A stretch of 64,000 nt of DNA from a virus (Duplodnaviria; Caudoviricetes): IMG/VR virus record IMGVR_UViG_3300005434_000009, positions 8,581 through 72,580 of that record; one strand, 5' to 3'. This document shows, piece after piece, positions 8,247 through 16,373 of the stretch. Below the pieces are notes generated by a model, which ran no database searches, had not been told where the DNA came from, and saw only the letters and a list, made by a program, of their open reading frames with translations. How positions within the stretch are numbered: position 1 is the first letter of the stretch; every line of letters begins with the position of its first letter. The position numbers were made by a program, and so were the translations under genes.

Positions 8247-8794
8247 TTCGCCACCGCCTTGAGCTGTTCGGCGGGAATGGAGAACAGGCTCTCCCGGAAC
8301 TTCTCGATCACAGCCGCGTTGGTGGTCTCCTTGAGCTCCACCCCTTGCTCGCCGGCGAACAGATCGGCGACGATGGTGAGGTCCCACCCGTTCTCTGAGC
8401 AGGACTGGCGCAGCTTCGCCTTCGCCACGTCGGCCTCACTGAGCGGCTTCTCCTGGGCGGCTCGCTGACGGTTGGCCTTGTCCATCTCCTCGCGGGATGG
8501 GCGGGCACCCTTCGGGGCGAACCCGAGTCGGGCCAGGGCTCGTCCTTCGGCGGAGGTTTCGCAGTTCTCCAGGGCGCTGGTCTGGTTCACTCCACGGCCG
8601 GTGACGATCTCCTCGGCGTGGCCGGTGGCGGCTGGTACGGAGTCGTCGGCGCTGCGGAAGATCTCGCAGCGGCAGATGTAGCGGGTGCCGTCCTGGAACA
8701 GGATGTCGGTGTGGATCCGGCCCTCGGGGTACTTCGCCCAGAACTGGGCGTTGCGTTCCTCTACGGGCTGGTAGTCGGCGAGGTTGAAGCCCAT
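8243..8794 (-). CDS. Putative single-strand annealing protein (Rad52/Sak-like)
   Basis: FWAKYPEGRI...ATGHAEE...VNQTSALENCETSAEGRALARLG; located next to ssb. Confidence 0.65.
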   Translation of the reverse strand: MGFNLADYQPVEERNAQFWAKYPEGRIHTDILFQDGTRYICRCEIFRSADDSVPAATGHAEEIVTGRGVNQTSALENCETSAEGRALARLGFAPKGARPSREEMDKANRQRAAQEKPLSEADVAKAKLRQSCSENGWDLTIVADLFAGEQGVELKETTNAAVIEKFRESLFSIPAEQLKAVAK

Positions 8795-12100: not shown

Positions 12101-12445
12101 GTGGCTGCTACTCGAGAGAGATCGGTCAAGGTCAGACTGCGCAACCAGTCGCATGTGCTGTACCGCATGTACGGCCCGGATCGTCGGCTGCTGTACATCG
12201 GGCTGACCACGAACCTTGAGGACCGCCTGGCCGACCACCGCAGCATGAAGCGGTGGTGGCGGGAGGTTGCGACGATCGAGCTGGAGCACTTCTCCACCCG
12301 CCCTGAAGCGGTGGAGGCCGAGCGCCGGGCCATCATCGACGAGGTGCCCGAGTACAACGTGACGAACGGGTACGCGCCGGCCGTTTCGCTGCATCCGAAG
12401 CCGGCGCGGCGCCGGCGGCCCAGCTCGGTTGAGGCAGGCGAGTAG
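12101..12445 (+). CDS. Small GIY-YIG nuclease
   Basis: LYRMY...LLYIGLT..LEDR...H...EAERRAI..E.PEYN. Confidence 0.8.
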   Translation: MAATRERSVKVRLRNQSHVLYRMYGPDRRLLYIGLTTNLEDRLADHRSMKRWWREVATIELEHFSTRPEAVEAERRAIIDEVPEYNVTNGYAPAVSLHPKPARRRRPSSVEAGE

Positions 12446-12446
12446 C

Positions 12447-12731
12447 TCACGCGGCCACCTGCCCGGCGATCAGATCCTGACCGGTTCGGTTCGCCCACCG
12501 ACACCGCCAGCAGGCTTCCTCTCCGTTGCGGAGGTGCCGTTTGTACGCCGCTCGCGTACCGCAGGGCTTCAAGACTCGCGCGACTCCCGCTCGCCGCTTC
12601 CAGTCCTGCCACGCCAGTCGGTGAGCGTCCAGGCAGTCAAGGCACGGGTACTCGCTGGCGGCGAGGTGCAGCCGGTAACCATGATCACGGCCGCACTGCT
12701 TCCGGGTAGTCGGGGGCAGCTTCCGCATCAC
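12447..12731 (-). CDS. Zn-finger repeat protein (CGT.AAY.RH.R.GE..C..C, two copies)
   Basis: Two C-x-G...H...C-xx-C units; adjacent to whiB. Confidence 0.7.
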   Translation of the reverse strand: MMRKLPPTTRKQCGRDHGYRLHLAASEYPCLDCLDAHRLAWQDWKRRAGVARVLKPCGTRAAYKRHLRNGEEACWRCRWANRTGQDLIAGQVAA

Positions 12732-13021
12732 GCCACCCGGCCTTCCCGGATGCGGCGACGCTGCTGCTCCCCCAACCCGCCACGCACACCCCACAGGTCA
12801 CCGGTCGAGTCCGCGTCTTCGAGGCATTCGTCCCGGACCGGGCACCGGCGACAGATACGCACAGCGGGGAGCGCGGACTCACCCTTCTCCGGGAAGAAAA
12901 TGGCGGGATCAACCTCACGGCAGGCCGCGTACTCCACCCACGGCCGGTCGCAGTCGAGCCCGAGTAGGCGTTGCAGTTGGCCGGGTGTGGCTTTCGGCCA
13001 CCAGGTGCGGACAGCCATCAC
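12728..13021 (-). CDS. whiB: WhiB-family transcription factor
   Basis: AACREVDPAIFFP...CRRCPVRDECL...WGVRGG: four Cys plus a G[VI]xGG turn. Confidence 0.92.
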   Translation of the reverse strand: MMAVRTWWPKATPGQLQRLLGLDCDRPWVEYAACREVDPAIFFPEKGESALPAVRICRRCPVRDECLEDADSTGDLWGVRGGLGEQQRRRIREGRVA

Positions 13022-13410
13022 GCCACCATCCGCAGCAGCAGGTCGGAGAACGGGTGCGACAACGGGGCCTCACCGGCCGGCCGGGTCGCCAACTCGGTGT
13101 TGGCCTGGACCAACGCCCGGTACACCCGTTCCAATTCGGCCCGCAGGTGGTCGTTTTCCGCTCTCAGCCCGGTTACGTCGGATCGGCCGGGGATGAGGAT
13201 CCCGGTTTCGAATCCGCGTCGTACCGCGTGCGCGGCTGTTCTTGCCCCCATCCGGTCGTAGGCCCGTTTCAGGTGGGACACCACTGACGGCAGGGTGAGC
13301 TCTAGTTCTTGGGCGGCGTGTTGGTAGGTGGCGCCGTGGGAGATGAGGTCCAGGATTTGTTCTTGGCGGTCGTGGGACCGGGCGAGACGGGCGGAACGCT
13401 TGTCGGTCAC
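13018..13410 (-). CDS. LuxR/GerE-type HTH protein
   Basis: QEQILDLISHGATYQHAAQELELT..SVVSHLKRAYDRMGART.AHAV..G.E.GIL. Confidence 0.85.
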   Translation of the reverse strand: MTDKRSARLARSHDRQEQILDLISHGATYQHAAQELELTLPSVVSHLKRAYDRMGARTAAHAVRRGFETGILIPGRSDVTGLRAENDHLRAELERVYRALVQANTELATRPAGEAPLSHPFSDLLLRMVA

Positions 13411-13622
13411 TTCGCTTCCCCCAGGATTCGACGGGCCTCAGCCCACAGCGGGGTCATGTCGCCGGCGTGGTCGTCCTCGATGGCGTCCACTAGCTGCTTC
13501 AGCACCTCGCGGGTCGACTCGTCCCTCCGCTGTTCGTCCGGCTGGTCGTCGGTGGTGACAGTCACCAACAGTGCGAGGACGCCGTACGCCAACAGGGCAA
13601 GAAACAACGGTTCGTTCAGCAC
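13407..13622 (-). CDS. Small membrane protein
   Basis: Hydrophobic N-terminus LFLALLAYGVLALLVTV. Confidence 0.5.
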   Translation of the reverse strand: MLNEPLFLALLAYGVLALLVTVTTDDQPDEQRRDESTREVLKQLVDAIEDDHAGDMTPLWAEARRILGEAK

Positions 13623-13732
13623 GGCCACTCCCTGTCCTCCACCCACCCGGTCTCCCACCCTTTGATGAGGGAGGCGAAACCGATGCAGTCGACGGCCAGG
13701 ACGGCGACACAGACGAGGACCACGGCGATCAC
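13616..13732 (-). CDS. Small hydrophobic protein (38 aa)
   Basis: GTG overlaps the MTase stop; VIAVVLVCVAVLAVDC... Confidence 0.4.
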   Translation of the reverse strand: MIAVVLVCVAVLAVDCIGFASLIKGWETGWVEDREWPC

Positions 13733-14846
13733 GCGGCCACCGCCTCGGTTGAAACCAGACGGGGCAGGAGAAGCCGTAGGGCGGCCTCCGCCTGTTGCGG
13801 GATGACGCCGTTACCCAGAAGCTTCAGCTGCTGGTTACGGGTCAGTCCGGGGACGTCGCACACCCAGCCTTCGGGGAGGCCCATGAGCCATTCCACGAAC
13901 GGTGCGGCCAACTGCCGGCCACCACGCAGGCCTAGAACAGTCGGGGCGGGTGCGGGCCGTCCGAGGAGGGCTTCCCATCGTCGGATGGCGGGTTCGTATC
14001 CGGCCCAGTCCAGAACACGTCCGTCAACGTCTGGCCGGCGTGGTGGGCACTGTCCGGGTTCGACCGGCCCGAGGTGGCGTTCCTGGTCCCCCGCGAGTCC
14101 GCGACCGTCGGCGTCGGCAGGAGCATCACGGCGTTCGGTAGCTGGTTGTTCCTGCACGGGTCGTCGCTGACCGATCCGTCGGACAGCACCCGGTTCTTCC
14201 TCGCCGACGGGCCTTTGTGATCCCTGCTCGTCGGGGTGGGAAGCAACGCGATCGCGTCGTCCAGATTCCGTTTGCCTTGGATGAACATCCGCCGGAACGC
14301 CGTCTTCGTCGACATCGACCTGCTCGCTGAGTCTACGTCCCTGGCCTGAGGCGTCGGCAGCAGTGATGAAGATCCGCTCCCGGCGGTGGGGGGCTCCAAC
14401 GGCGGAAGCTCGTAGGCTTCCCCAGCACGCGTCATACCCGATTTGGGCCAGGTCGCCGACGGCTCGGGCAAGCTCCCCAGCGCCAGCGATAGCGCTGACG
14501 TTCTCCAGGACGACGAGTCGTGGTCGTAGCGTGCGAATGGCTCCGGCAACTGCCGGCCAGATGGCCCGCTCATCCTCTGCGCCCTTCCTCTTCCCTGCCT
14601 GCGACCAGGGCTGGCAGGGCCAGCCGGCGGTGATGACTTCGACCGGTTCGGCCCGTGCCCAGTCCATGGCGATCAGGTCGTGGTGGTTCGGGATGCCAGG
14701 GTGGTTGTGGGCGAGCAGTGTTGAGGCTCCAGCGTCGATGTCGCACACCCACGCCAACTCGCCACCCAGCACGGCCTGCACGGCCATATCAAGGCCGCCG
14801 TTCAATAGCCTGAGCACAGGGAACCGATTCGGAGCTGCTCAGACAT
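13729..14846 (-). pseudogene. C5 cytosine DNA methyltransferase with motif I broken by a 5-nt insertion
   Basis: ATG at 14846 gives MSEQLRIGSLCSGY*; the shifted frame resumes GGLDMAV...AGWPCQPWS (motif IV)...LENV (VI)...HRRERIF (VIII)...LGNGV.P (X). Confidence 0.8.
13932..14573 (-). CDS. Nested alternative-frame ORF inside the MTase (EcoHK31I beta-like)
   Basis: 213 codons open in another frame with SWRT, WPKSGMTRAG and three LLPTP repeats. Confidence 0.55.
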   Translation of the reverse strand: MSGPSGRQLPEPFARYDHDSSSWRTSALSLALGSLPEPSATWPKSGMTRAGEAYELPPLEPPTAGSGSSSLLPTPQARDVDSASRSMSTKTAFRRMFIQGKRNLDDAIALLPTPTSRDHKGPSARKNRVLSDGSVSDDPCRNNQLPNAVMLLPTPTVADSRGTRNATSGRSNPDSAHHAGQTLTDVFWTGPDTNPPSDDGKPSSDGPHPPRLF

Positions 14847-15417
14847 AGGACATCACCCCCCGTGGTGGCGAGGTGCGCTCGCCGGTCAGCCTGCGACGTG
14901 CGGCGTCGTAGGTGCGATGGCACGGGACGCACATACGCTCGTAATCAGCGACGTTGTCGTATCGCCCGGTCAGATTGGCCCACTCATAGCGGACATCGGG
15001 GGCGCCAGTCCCGCACTGCTCGCAACGGGACGGTTTGCCCCGAGCGGCGGCGACGCGCAAGTGCAGAGCGGTGTAGCTGGCACCTGACCCGCGCCAGCTG
15101 CCGTTACGCTCGCCGGTCTGGTCGCGCGGTACCGCTGGCCTTCGTTCAGCGATGAACCGCTCAACCAGCGCTTGCGCCTTATACCCGGACCCGATCACGG
15201 TGTCGATCTCGCGGATGGTTGCGCCGTCGGCGTACATCTGCCGAACAGCCTCAACAAGATCCGGCGGATAGTCCCGTTTCGGTCGACCAGGCGAGGGGCG
15301 TTCGCGTTCCCGCAAGCGCGCTCGACACACGGGCGAGCAGGAGCGGGCGGTGAGGGACTTTGTCGTCCACCGAGATCCGCAGTAATCGCAGGTCTTCTCC
15401 CGCAGCGAGGATGGCAT
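14839..15417 (-). CDS. HNH-type homing endonuclease with Zn-finger/HTH N-terminus
   Basis: GERNGSWRG...Y.ALH..V...RGKP..CEQCG...EWANLTG.Y.....Y.RMC..CH..YD. Confidence 0.7.
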   Translation of the reverse strand: MPSSLREKTCDYCGSRWTTKSLTARSCSPVCRARLRERERPSPGRPKRDYPPDLVEAVRQMYADGATIREIDTVIGSGYKAQALVERFIAERRPAVPRDQTGERNGSWRGSGASYTALHLRVAAARGKPSRCEQCGTGAPDVRYEWANLTGRYDNVADYERMCVPCHRTYDAARRRLTGERTSPPRGVMSYV

Positions 15418-15458
15418 CAGAGTCCGCCGTAACCGGTGCAGAGACTCCCGATCTTCAC
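15417..15458 (-). pseudogene. 13-codon stub of an MTase N-terminus (VKIGSLCTGYGGL*)
   Basis: GTG AAG ATC GGG AGT CTC TGC ACC GGT TAC GGC GGA CTC TGA encodes motif I; coupled to the upstream stop (GTGA) and the HNH start (TGATG). Confidence 0.75.
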
Positions 15459-15709
15459 CGGAAACACGCCCCCGTCATCACTGCCGGCCCGTACACGGGC
15501 ACATCAGCGGACACGAACGCCACCTGACCGAGCTCAGTCGGGTCCGGGGGTGCGACGGTGACCCCGAGAGAGCACACGACGGCGAGGAGGATGACGAACC
15601 CGGCGAGGGCGAGGCGGGTTTTCACGCACGGCCAGGCGTCTTCGACGTGGTCGATGACCCGCTGGTGGCGGTGAGGGCGTGGTTTGCGGTGCTTCCCGAC
15701 GTAGGACAT
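15455..15709 (-). CDS. Small membrane protein
   Basis: One TM segment LALAGFVILLAVVCSLGV. Confidence 0.5.
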   Translation of the reverse strand: MSYVGKHRKPRPHRHQRVIDHVEDAWPCVKTRLALAGFVILLAVVCSLGVTVAPPDPTELGQVAFVSADVPVYGPAVMTGACFR

Positions 15710-15894
15710 CAGGCGGCCCTCCGCTCGGCCTGAACCTCAGCCAGCGCCTGGCCGCGAGCCTGAGACAGGCCGTCAGGCACAGGCCGAGCCGGCCTGCCGC
15801 CGACGAGGCATGTGTCGCACAGCTCGAGGTTGGCGAACGCCTGACGGCCGCAGCGGTCGCATGGTCCGGGAACGGATAGGCAGCGGAAGATCAT
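15709..15894 (-). CDS. Small Zn-ribbon protein
   Basis: CDRCG...CDTC. Confidence 0.5.
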   Translation of the reverse strand: MIFRCLSVPGPCDRCGRQAFANLELCDTCLVGGRPARPVPDGLSQARGQALAEVQAERRAA

Positions 15895-16373
15895 GACGCC
15901 ACCGCCAGCTGCTCGATCCTGTTCAGCCCGAGCTGGGCGAGATGGGCACGGATCTCGTTGCGGGTCTTCTCGAACCGGGGGTCACCCGCCGGGTTCGGCA
16001 GAGACTCGACCAGGCGCAGACACCGCTGGATGCCGGCGAACAACGGGTCATCCCCCGAGGCGGGGGTTCGGGCCCAGTCGGTGGGCAGGTGCAGCCCTAG
16101 GCGGTACACCCCCCACTCGAGGAGTTCCCGCAGCTCCGTCTGTGCGCACGCCGCACCGCAGATGTTCTCGAAGTGCACCGGGTGGTCCGGGGAGAACTGG
16201 TAGGAGATCTGCCACCGCCCCATCGGGGCGACGTCCTCCCCCGCCCCCAGGATGTGGACGGAGCACTGGTCGAGTTCGACGTCGGCGTTGGCCTGGACGT
16301 CCACCTCAGGTAGGGAAGCGGCCGGGGGGAGTTCGTCGGCGCGACCTAACGCGGCCACCTGCTGCGCGGTCAT
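15891..16373 (-). CDS. Hypothetical protein (paralog of 11071-11637)
   Basis: W..SY...F.NICGAACA...LRELL..GVY..LHLP. Confidence 0.65.
   Translation of the reverse strand: MTAQQVAALGRADELPPAASLPEVDVQANADVELDQCSVHILGAGEDVAPMGRWQISYQFSPDHPVHFENICGAACAQTELRELLEWGVYRLGLHLPTDWARTPASGDDPLFAGIQRCLRLVESLPNPAGDPRFEKTRNEIRAHLAQLGLNRIEQLAVAS

Follow-up and report, generated by a model that had tools for sequence, protein, structure and literature searches.

The 64,000-nucleotide window analysed here (IMGVR_UViG_3300005434_000009, positions 8,581 to 72,580; Caudoviricetes) carries a C5 cytosine DNA methyltransferase gene directly preceded by a gene for an HNH homing-endonuclease-like protein. We think it fairly probable that this locus is a mobile cassette of the T4 MobA/gene 60 type, aimed at motif I of phage C5 methyltransferases, and that the enzyme is obtained through recoding at UAU-UGA-AC. 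The cassette would have three parts: a free-standing HNH gene; a recoded methyltransferase start of 14 codons, predicted to form an RNA hairpin; and the insert TGAAC, 5 nt long, which separates the Tyr codon of motif I from its Gly-Gly codons (S-G-Y|G-G-L-D). The HNH protein would nick or cut the unbroken motif I DNA of cassette-free phages, and the insert and recoded codons would make the carrier immune. A preliminary description had already reported the HNH gene between two copies of motif I; what is new here, as far as sequences can tell, is a conserved frame break within that motif.

The frame break in motif I

All genes around the methyltransferase lie on the minus strand, and consecutive open reading frames (ORFs) overlap by stop and start. 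The HNH ORF (192 aa, 14839–15417) ends in ATGTCTGA, which overlaps the ATG (14846) of a 14-codon leader ORF, MSEQLRIGSLCSGY-TGA (14802–14846), borne by the cassette and encoding a recoded first strand and first half of motif I. The methyltransferase body, in the frame of GGLDMAV (13729–14799; PF00145, E 3.7e-29; TIGR00675), begins GGC GGC CTT GAT ATG at 14799, 5 nt past the Tyr codon of the leader and in a different frame. The recoding site UAU UGA AC (14800–14807) comprises the proposed take-off codon, Tyr UAU (14807–14805), and the gap TGAAC (14804–14800), which sets a stop directly after the Tyr codon and AAC directly before GGC GGC. Taking out TGAAC yields a canonical motif I, S-G-Y-G-G-L-D. 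Motifs I, IV (PCQ), VI (ENV), VIII (RxR) and X (GNG) of C5 cytosine DNA methyltransferases (PF00145) are all present, motif I being complete only with leader and body joined over the gap. The preliminary description had this second N-terminus attached to the rest of the enzyme; the copy is there, but an in-frame TGA and a 5-nt frame break separate it from the body. That the two motif I copies are recoded holds good, most synonymous positions differing between them.

Sixteen distinct alleles share the break pattern GGC-TAY-TGA-AY-GGN-GGN, and five have a 4-nt derivative of it, TAT-TAA-C; by gap, the 21 unique alleles divide into TGAAT (10), TGAAC (6) and TAAC (5). They come from the Gordonia phages Gudmit and Lton, IMG/VR contigs, metagenomes and two actinobacterial metagenome-assembled genomes, on contigs of 45–71% GC. 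Gudmit and Lton, about 66% identical to the window in nucleotides around the site, have an HNH homologue directly upstream of an annotated methylase and a leader that reads ATG TCC GAA ACA CTC CGC ACC GGA AGC CTG TTT TCG GGC TAT TGA AC GGC GGA. The same 16-mer at the break is common to Gudmit, Lton and locus L010, a third, diverged case found in an exact-pattern scan of IMG/VR; L022 was reached through an HNH profile and L025 through a degenerate pattern, and pattern matches in metagenomes proved to be true methyltransferase starts in 13 of 13 cases. Besides the window, the 5-nt site stands in Gudmit, Lton, L010, L022, L025, L033–L045, L145 and L146. The 4-nt form (TCG GGC TAT TAA C GGT GGC) was present in 3 of the 80 nearest IMG/VR methyltransferase loci, the TAT TAA C variant being carried by L106, L108, L114 and L126–L144, and about 17 large contigs from one sample have it with synonymous differences. 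It equals the 5-nt form minus one G, so that both forms keep the Tyr codon, a stop right after it and AAY (AAC in the 4-nt form) right before GGN GGN.

A stop, UGA or UAA, immediately follows UAY in 21 of 21 unique alleles, most 5-nt alleles having been retrieved by a pattern that fixes the gap sequence, including this stop; the window, Gudmit, Lton, L010, L022 and the TAAC group were found without fixing it. A leader-pattern search for ungapped MSE-type leaders, that is, revertants, returned only L025, and a search for other gap sequences (a GS-LFSGY-stop pattern) returned only the TGAAY and TAAC types, plus chance matches. A literature search turned up no account of phage C5 methyltransferases with a frame break, a bypass or a homing cassette.

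Selection was gauged across the 21 alleles as the number of distinct amino acids over distinct codons in each frame. Upstream of the gap the leader frame gives 0.52, against 0.78 and 0.92 for the other frames; downstream, the body frame gives 0.56, against 0.80 and 0.81. Substitutions on each side are mostly synonymous in that side's own frame, and leader Ser codons vary among TCC, TCG, AGC and AGT. These ratios and the varied Ser codons argue that leader and body are both translated and selected as protein, leaving two coding parts under purifying selection in their own frames with a non-coding gap between them, as expected of bypassing. Read across these alleles, the frame break is neither a sequencing error nor decay.

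The body offers no conserved start of its own. Low-GC alleles have no ATG, GTG or TTG in the body frame before GGN GGN, L025 has a TAG in that frame six codons upstream, and the starts that GenBank gives for Gudmit gp58 and Lton gp60, which precede the gap in the body frame, are not conserved. Because these coding sequences (L001:2722-4107, Gudmit gp58; L002:2767-3897, Lton gp60) leave out the conserved leader peptide, both annotations probably need a recoding note.

The leader is predicted to form a hairpin (14808–14844) that begins at the G of the ATG and extends as far as GGC, the codon just 5′ of Tyr. Its closing stem is GUCUGAGCA/UGCUCAGGC, with the 3′ arm ending at the GGC codon just before the Tyr codon, and pairs in register at 108 of 126 positions, compared with 34–73 of 126 in slid controls. 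RNAalifold returns the same eight pairs, three of them with compensatory double changes, and L010, L106 and L145 form the hairpin from different primary sequences. It is found in 95% of broken versus 21% of intact alleles, with a mean z of −2.4 versus +0.06 (Mann-Whitney p about 4e-9 and 3e-10, values that overstate the support because the alleles are not phylogenetically independent). The predicted hairpin is thus a further signal specific to the cassette.

The HNH gene and the mobility of its cassette

The HNH protein consists of an N-terminal CxxC...CSPxC zinc ribbon, a helix-turn-helix and a C-terminal HNH domain with the invariants H119, C132xxC135 and C163xxC166-H167. It matches the PHROG HNH families phrog_8446 (E 2.7e-8) and phrog_1271 (E 5.6e-6), has homologues in Gudmit (56%), Lton (59%), L010 and L022, and has 136 database homologues at E ≤ 1e-10; a Pfam search gave no match and a sequence search of solved structures found nothing. 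In an AlphaFold2 model (mean confidence, pLDDT, 76), VIA-align matches residues 104–180 to the HNH domains of GVE2, Gme, Hpy99I and ZRANB3 (Z 4.5–5.0), and residues 44–97 match helix-turn-helix domains; Foldseek with the same model gave no match at E ≤ 0.001. By motif and model the gene appears to encode an HNH (beta-beta-alpha-metal) nuclease, as a free-standing homing cassette should. A single-sequence search in IMG/VR found nothing and a profile search found 5 loci, profile-derived patterns found none in genome contigs, and a sample of 401 genomes of the class contained only 2 matches. The zinc ribbon is present in the HNH proteins of the window, Gudmit, L010 and L146; a shorter HNH (~150 aa) without it occurs in Lton (L002:2324-2767), L022, L034, L036, L043 and L045, that is, in Lton and all low-GC cassettes. 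An HNH homologue of 44% identity at L021:3441-3890 (IMGVR_UViG_3300032770_000020) lies beside an unrelated, non-methyltransferase gene, and the family therefore has members with other contexts or targets.

An HNH profile was run with hmmsearch over all fetched loci. A full HNH gene stands directly upstream of the break in the window, L001, L002, L010, L022/L044, L034, L036, L037, L043, L045 and L146, so that about half of the broken alleles have the same family upstream, with a remnant or nothing in the others. A clear C-terminal remnant is left in L035/L039 and short C-terminal tails only in L041 and L042; the profile found no HNH upstream of L025, L038, L040, L145 or the TAAC group. L035, L041 and L042 look like stages of endonuclease decay in which the gap is retained. 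In L035 the remnant, ending in RMCVPCHRRFDAARRAETGERTSPVRR and a stop, abuts an unrelated gene. Among loci with intact motif I, the same profile search found the family in 0 of 77.

A quick-search maximum-likelihood tree of the catalytic domains interleaves broken with intact alleles, its starred branches forcing at least five changes. The broken, HNH-bearing L043 is sister to the intact L120 (support 99, a starred branch), and further broken/intact sister pairs are L025 with L096, L010 with L105 and the TAAC group with L070. Between L043 and L120, 92% identity over 689 nt starts exactly at the first G past the gap; the nine codons before the gap are 56% identical (15 of 27 nt) and use different synonymous codons. 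Detectable homology starts within 0–2 nt of the gap in most of 11 other broken/intact pairs. Conversely, Gudmit and Lton share 98% of the leader, 80% of the HNH 3′ part and 64% of the body, and their bodies fall into different subfamilies of the tree. This interleaving, the homology that starts at the gap and the Gudmit/Lton contrast carry the signature of a homing cassette replacing the first 14 codons of diverse resident genes. The comparisons place the cassette on methyltransferase bodies that are unrelated to one another, each closest to intact alleles without the HNH, a sporadic presence beside one target gene for which near-identical cassette-free alleles exist. They also indicate that the frame break travels with the cassette and outlasts HNH loss. 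Every cassette allele is altered in motif I by a 4–5-nt insert and recoded flanking codons, changes that would block cleavage of the carrier allele. HNH linkage, tree and the L043/L120 pair all speak for the earlier proposal that the HNH is an intronless homing gene carrying a recoded replacement 5′ end. A group I intron with an HNH ORF was set aside: an Rfam search of 13300–16000 at E ≤ 1 found no intron family (two sub-threshold, irrelevant matches only), and ORFs that abut with overlapping stops and starts leave no room for one.

Upstream of the HNH gene is a 13-codon minigene, VKIGSLCTGYGGL and a stop (15417–15458; GTG AAG ATC GGG AGT CTC TGC ACC GGT TAC GGC GGA CTC TGA), whose TGA overlaps the ATG of the HNH ORF (TGATG); read on the minus strand, it is placed and described correctly in the preliminary description. 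Its own GTG overlaps the TGA (GTGA) of an 84-aa ORF without a family match (15455–15709). The motif I codons of the minigene, GGT TAC GGC GGA CTC, are unbroken. It matches the L058 N-terminus, VKIGSLCTGY|GGLDMA, and intact relatives, L049–L052 and L058 among them, usually begin (M/V/L)KIGSLCTGY|GGLDMAV. The preliminary description depended on relatives having a contiguous methyltransferase with such a start, and genes beginning (M/V/L)KIGSLCTGYGG are indeed common in HNH-free relatives. A minigene-type remnant upstream of the HNH exists in 1 of 14 cassette loci checked, the window itself. We read the minigene as the orphaned start (first 13 codons) of a resident methyltransferase, a fossil of insertion and not half of a genes-in-pieces enzyme, because it occurs only in the window and derives from a different allele. 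On this view the resident gene would have been broken and, for want of upstream homology between donor and recipient, its left end attached to the arriving cassette by an illegitimate join; the end of the minigene, ...GGC GGA CTC, may mark the position of the break, predicted near GGA CTC^GAT. Neither the 84-aa ORF nor the 2.3 kb of DNA upstream has relatives in IMG/VR or among phage records, so that no HNH-free relative of this virus could serve to map the insertion, and the empty-site comparison was made on the other pairs above. A 7-bp direct repeat, ACGGCGG, flanks the cassette, one copy within the minigene (15424–15430) and one formed by the last two gap bases and GGC GG (14795–14801), and deletion between them would leave one open frame, VKIGSLCTGYGGLDMAV.... 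As it reads, this repeat is merely the Y-G-G coding sequence common to both alleles.

Probable translation across the break

Ribosomes probably produce the full-length enzyme by hopping a short distance or by shifting frame. In the mechanism we envisage, peptidyl-tRNA(Tyr) sits in the P site with a slow stop codon in the A site; the ribosome would move 5 nt forward (4 nt in the TAT-TAA-C variant), bringing AAY into the P site, and would read GGN GGN next, restoring the canonical SGYGGLD. Take-off from UAY and landing on AAY is favoured because it explains both gap forms and restores the exact motif. A related possibility, in the same class, is that AAY is read out of frame in the A site; this too would account for both gap forms, but its product, SGYNGGLD, would have an Asn added to the glycine loop. 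By analogy with gene 60, in whose bypassing mRNA pairing behind the ribosome has been proposed to play a role (10.1101/2022.08.31.505936), the leader hairpin may fold again once the ribosome has passed and so draw the mRNA forward. Other events were tried and rejected: simple −1 or +1 slippage, since tRNA(Tyr) cannot re-pair at CUA, AUU or YUG; a fixed slip, since the 5-nt form needs −1 or +2 and the 4-nt form +1, which are different events; and a hop from one GGC to the next, which would delete Y-G from motif I. No tRNA gene, suppressor or otherwise odd, was found in the window.

Several points weigh against this account. The proposed landing triplet, AAY, pairs with tRNA(Tyr) at only two of three positions, and take-off and landing codons are matched in gene 60 and in the classical stop-hops. 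A driving role for the hairpin is speculative because its 3′ arm lies inside the ribosome at take-off; the structure might equally well serve to control initiation or the coupling with the HNH gene, and its p-values are inflated as noted. The minigene keeps an unbroken motif I core, which the HNH protein would have to spare, and other gap variants may have been missed, since most 5-nt alleles came from the gap-fixing pattern. We hold only tentatively, and with more doubt than belief, the fuller proposal of a second natural phage family of programmed bypassing, in which a 4–5-nt stop-codon hop from Tyr to near-cognate AAY, aided by the hairpin, crosses a gap that a homing HNH installed in the S-adenosylmethionine-binding motif of cytosine methyltransferases as self-protection.

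The preliminary description had left the activity of the enzyme to recombination, recoding or peptide complementation; recoding is the best supported of these, and the other two are weaker. Complementation would take the form of a split enzyme: translation stops at the TGA, a 14-aa peptide is released, ribosomes reinitiate at the overlapping TTG (TTGA), and the peptide donates the first strand non-covalently to a body beginning M-N-G-G-L-D. An NTGA stop-start overlap is the normal coupling signal in this operon (GTGA, TGATG, ATGTCTGA), C5 methyltransferases do work from two polypeptides (M.AquI, M.EcoHK31I, fragment complementation; PMC3404938), and the body in this family is already coded by two overlapping ORFs. 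Yet translation would have to restart at TTG in high-GC alleles, at CTG in low-GC ones and at ATT where the gap is TAAC: the codon differs from group to group, is in each case weak or no start codon at all, and has no convincing Shine-Dalgarno sequence ahead of it; a free 14-residue peptide would need to find and complete the central sheet and the loop that binds S-adenosylmethionine (AdoMet), and the natural splits known lie in the variable region, not in motif I (PMC3404938). We hold a split enzyme to be unlikely. Recombination would instead work as a switch, the enzyme being off in the window until deletion between the ACGGCGG repeats removes HNH, leader and gap, so that minigene and body come to lie in one frame. 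Both repeat copies are there, and the deletion would leave a continuous ORF, but the minigene and repeat pair are unique to the window and the break is general, 7 bp is a poor substrate, and the repeat is conserved Y-G-G coding sequence in both alleles; such a switch seems highly improbable.

The remaining accounts do without a full-length product or without a real break. The cassette might be a selfish knock-out that inactivates the methyltransferase and appears conserved because a single cassette has lately spread horizontally, not because its function is selected. Homing elements may indeed harm their carriers, and HNH and broken leader do spread horizontally. Against inactivation, leaders at 48–75% nucleotide identity keep the peptide through synonymous changes that include switches of Ser codon family, the break persists in the HNH-less lineages L025, L035, the L106 group and L145, the downstream bodies are open, with intact catalytic motifs and mostly synonymous divergence, and the hairpin has compensatory changes; we find a knock-out distinctly unlikely. 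The body might also be translated by itself, using a start further upstream in its frame (GTG at 14817 in the window, in Gudmit the annotated GTG), with the leader as no more than a coupling upstream ORF; the GenBank annotation of Gudmit gp58 and Lton gp60 implies this. Such starts are not conserved and are missing from low-GC alleles, the protein would be without its first strand and the first glycine of motif I, and the leader peptide keeps methyltransferase N-terminal sequence under selection, so this N-terminally truncated enzyme is likewise very improbable. The window does come from a metagenome-derived IMG/VR record, in which an assembly or sequencing error is conceivable; this is refuted by the identical break in two cultured phages that were sequenced independently, and in dozens of contigs whose samples are unrelated, and we give it virtually no weight.

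Methyltransferase body, surrounding genes and known systems

Beyond motif I, the body contains motifs IV (GWPCQPWS), VI (ENV) and VIII (RRERIF) and a C-terminal IX-X region (...GNGV). The catalytic and C-terminal (IX-X) parts share one frame, and a target-recognition region with LLPTP repeats is nested in the +1 frame as a 213-codon ORF (13932–14573; phrog_1008, E 6.4e-22) that shares ~210 nt with the catalytic part and ~85 nt with the C-terminal part. BLASTP of the body against the WillSterrel methyltransferase (6e-73) aligns both ends and not the middle, where ~110 codons of the body frame have no homology to relatives; the nested recognition region has tblastn matches in 263 phage records. 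The same nested layout is found in L001, L002, L018, L039, L063, L073, L075, L086, L092, L104, L111 and L116, and many other relatives have two overlapping ORFs, one catalytic and one, in the +1 frame, with recognition and C-terminal parts. Over ~70 overlapping codons the +1 frame is about as conserved as the catalytic frame. Because the nested or overlapping layout recurs in so many relatives, the body is not a decayed pseudogene. The closest relative of the window's catalytic domain (76%) is L086:1837-2547 (IMGVR_UViG_3300002145_000097), with motif I intact. It has a different HNH domain (…HHRDHDKTNN…NLECLTADEH…) with a helix-turn-helix inserted in frame between 'AIDWE' and motif IV, so methyltransferase genes of these phages seem to be targeted by more than one endonuclease family. 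An opposite-strand ORF (12101–12445, plus strand) with LYRMYGPDRRLLYIGLTTNLEDRLADH resembles, by eye, a GIY-YIG nuclease domain; if it is one, it may be another endonuclease in the same gene block. A minus-strand ORF (12728–13021) with a …C…CxxCPVRDxC…GVxGG pattern looks WhiB-like by eye, and a WhiB-like gene also lies ahead of the methyltransferase in the TAAC-variant contigs L106, L108 and L114.

To our knowledge, utilised translational bypassing outside yeast mitochondria is essentially one system, T4 gene 60 with the MobA element, and the origin of the gene 60 bypass in endonuclease self-protection by a coding gap has so far been argued from that single family. A second, unrelated cassette, if real, would make 'endonuclease + protective gap + recoding' a recurrent evolutionary solution and would provide a very small, experimentally tractable recoding site in cultured Gordonia phages. 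On the practical side, methyltransferase genes in Gudmit, Lton and many metagenomic phages appear to be annotated with wrong starts, and motif I of phage methyltransferases appears to be a homing hot spot, which affects predictions of the anti-restriction capacity of phages.

Among known systems, M.AquI, M.EcoHK31I and fragment complementation demonstrate that C5 methyltransferases tolerate a two-polypeptide make-up (PMC3404938). Here, too, the body is in overlapping or nested frames, a catalytic part and a recognition part in the +1 frame; their splits lie in the variable region or at motif IX (PMC3404938), whereas the present break is inside motif I, 14 residues from the N-terminus. The preliminary description had compared the locus with mobE splitting nrdA in phage Aeh1. 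That likeness stands for a free-standing HNH gene inside its target gene, whose function is presumably retained. The Aeh1 halves, however, are sizeable and separately translated; here all that lies upstream is 13 codons left over from a different allele, and this in the window only, the working N-terminus is supplied by the cassette, and the body lacks a conserved start codon, so the two pieces are not separately initiated parts of one gene. The T4 mobA/gene 60 arrangement is closer.

Short stop-hops and shifty stops have reportedly been described in bacteria by Weiss et al. 1987, and prfB undergoes a +1 frameshift at CUU UGA C. In these, as proposed here, a sense codon is followed by a slow A-site stop and the peptidyl-tRNA re-pairs a few nucleotides downstream. 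Stop-hops known so far have matched codons and are either synthetic or inefficient, and the review searched here describes no natural conserved +5/+4 event at UAY-stop-AAY (PMC5009743).

The nearest parallel remains the T4 MobA element, reportedly studied by Bonocora et al. 2011 as described by Manning & Atkins. In both systems a free-standing HNH-family endonuclease travels with a recoded target stretch and with a non-coding insert that breaks the frame, the take-off codon has a stop after it, the endonuclease decays or goes while the insert persists, and insertion has recurred at the same place in diverged target genes. For T4, one account describes an HNH homing endonuclease, a diverged target stretch and a 50-nt bypass insert that protects against MobA nicking, with a stop following the take-off codon and an insert that persists after endonuclease loss (10.1101/2022.08.31.505936). 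In T4 the endonuclease site is disrupted by the insert, as it would be here. The differences are several: a C5 DNA methyltransferase, at its motif I, takes the place of topoisomerase II as the target; the gap has 4–5 nt instead of 50; take-off and landing codons (UAY and AAY) are unmatched, agreeing at two of three positions; there is no take-off stem-loop containing the take-off codon, the whole-leader hairpin ending just 5′ of it; the HNH gene lies upstream of the whole gene and does not split it, except in the window fossil; and the hosts are actinobacterial phages and unknown lower-GC phages. Because its take-off and landing codons are unmatched, we do not file the locus as a member of the gene 60 type and regard its working as only possibly similar. 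Differing in target, gap length, codons, RNA structure and hosts, it is best taken as a variant of the MobA/gene 60 kind.

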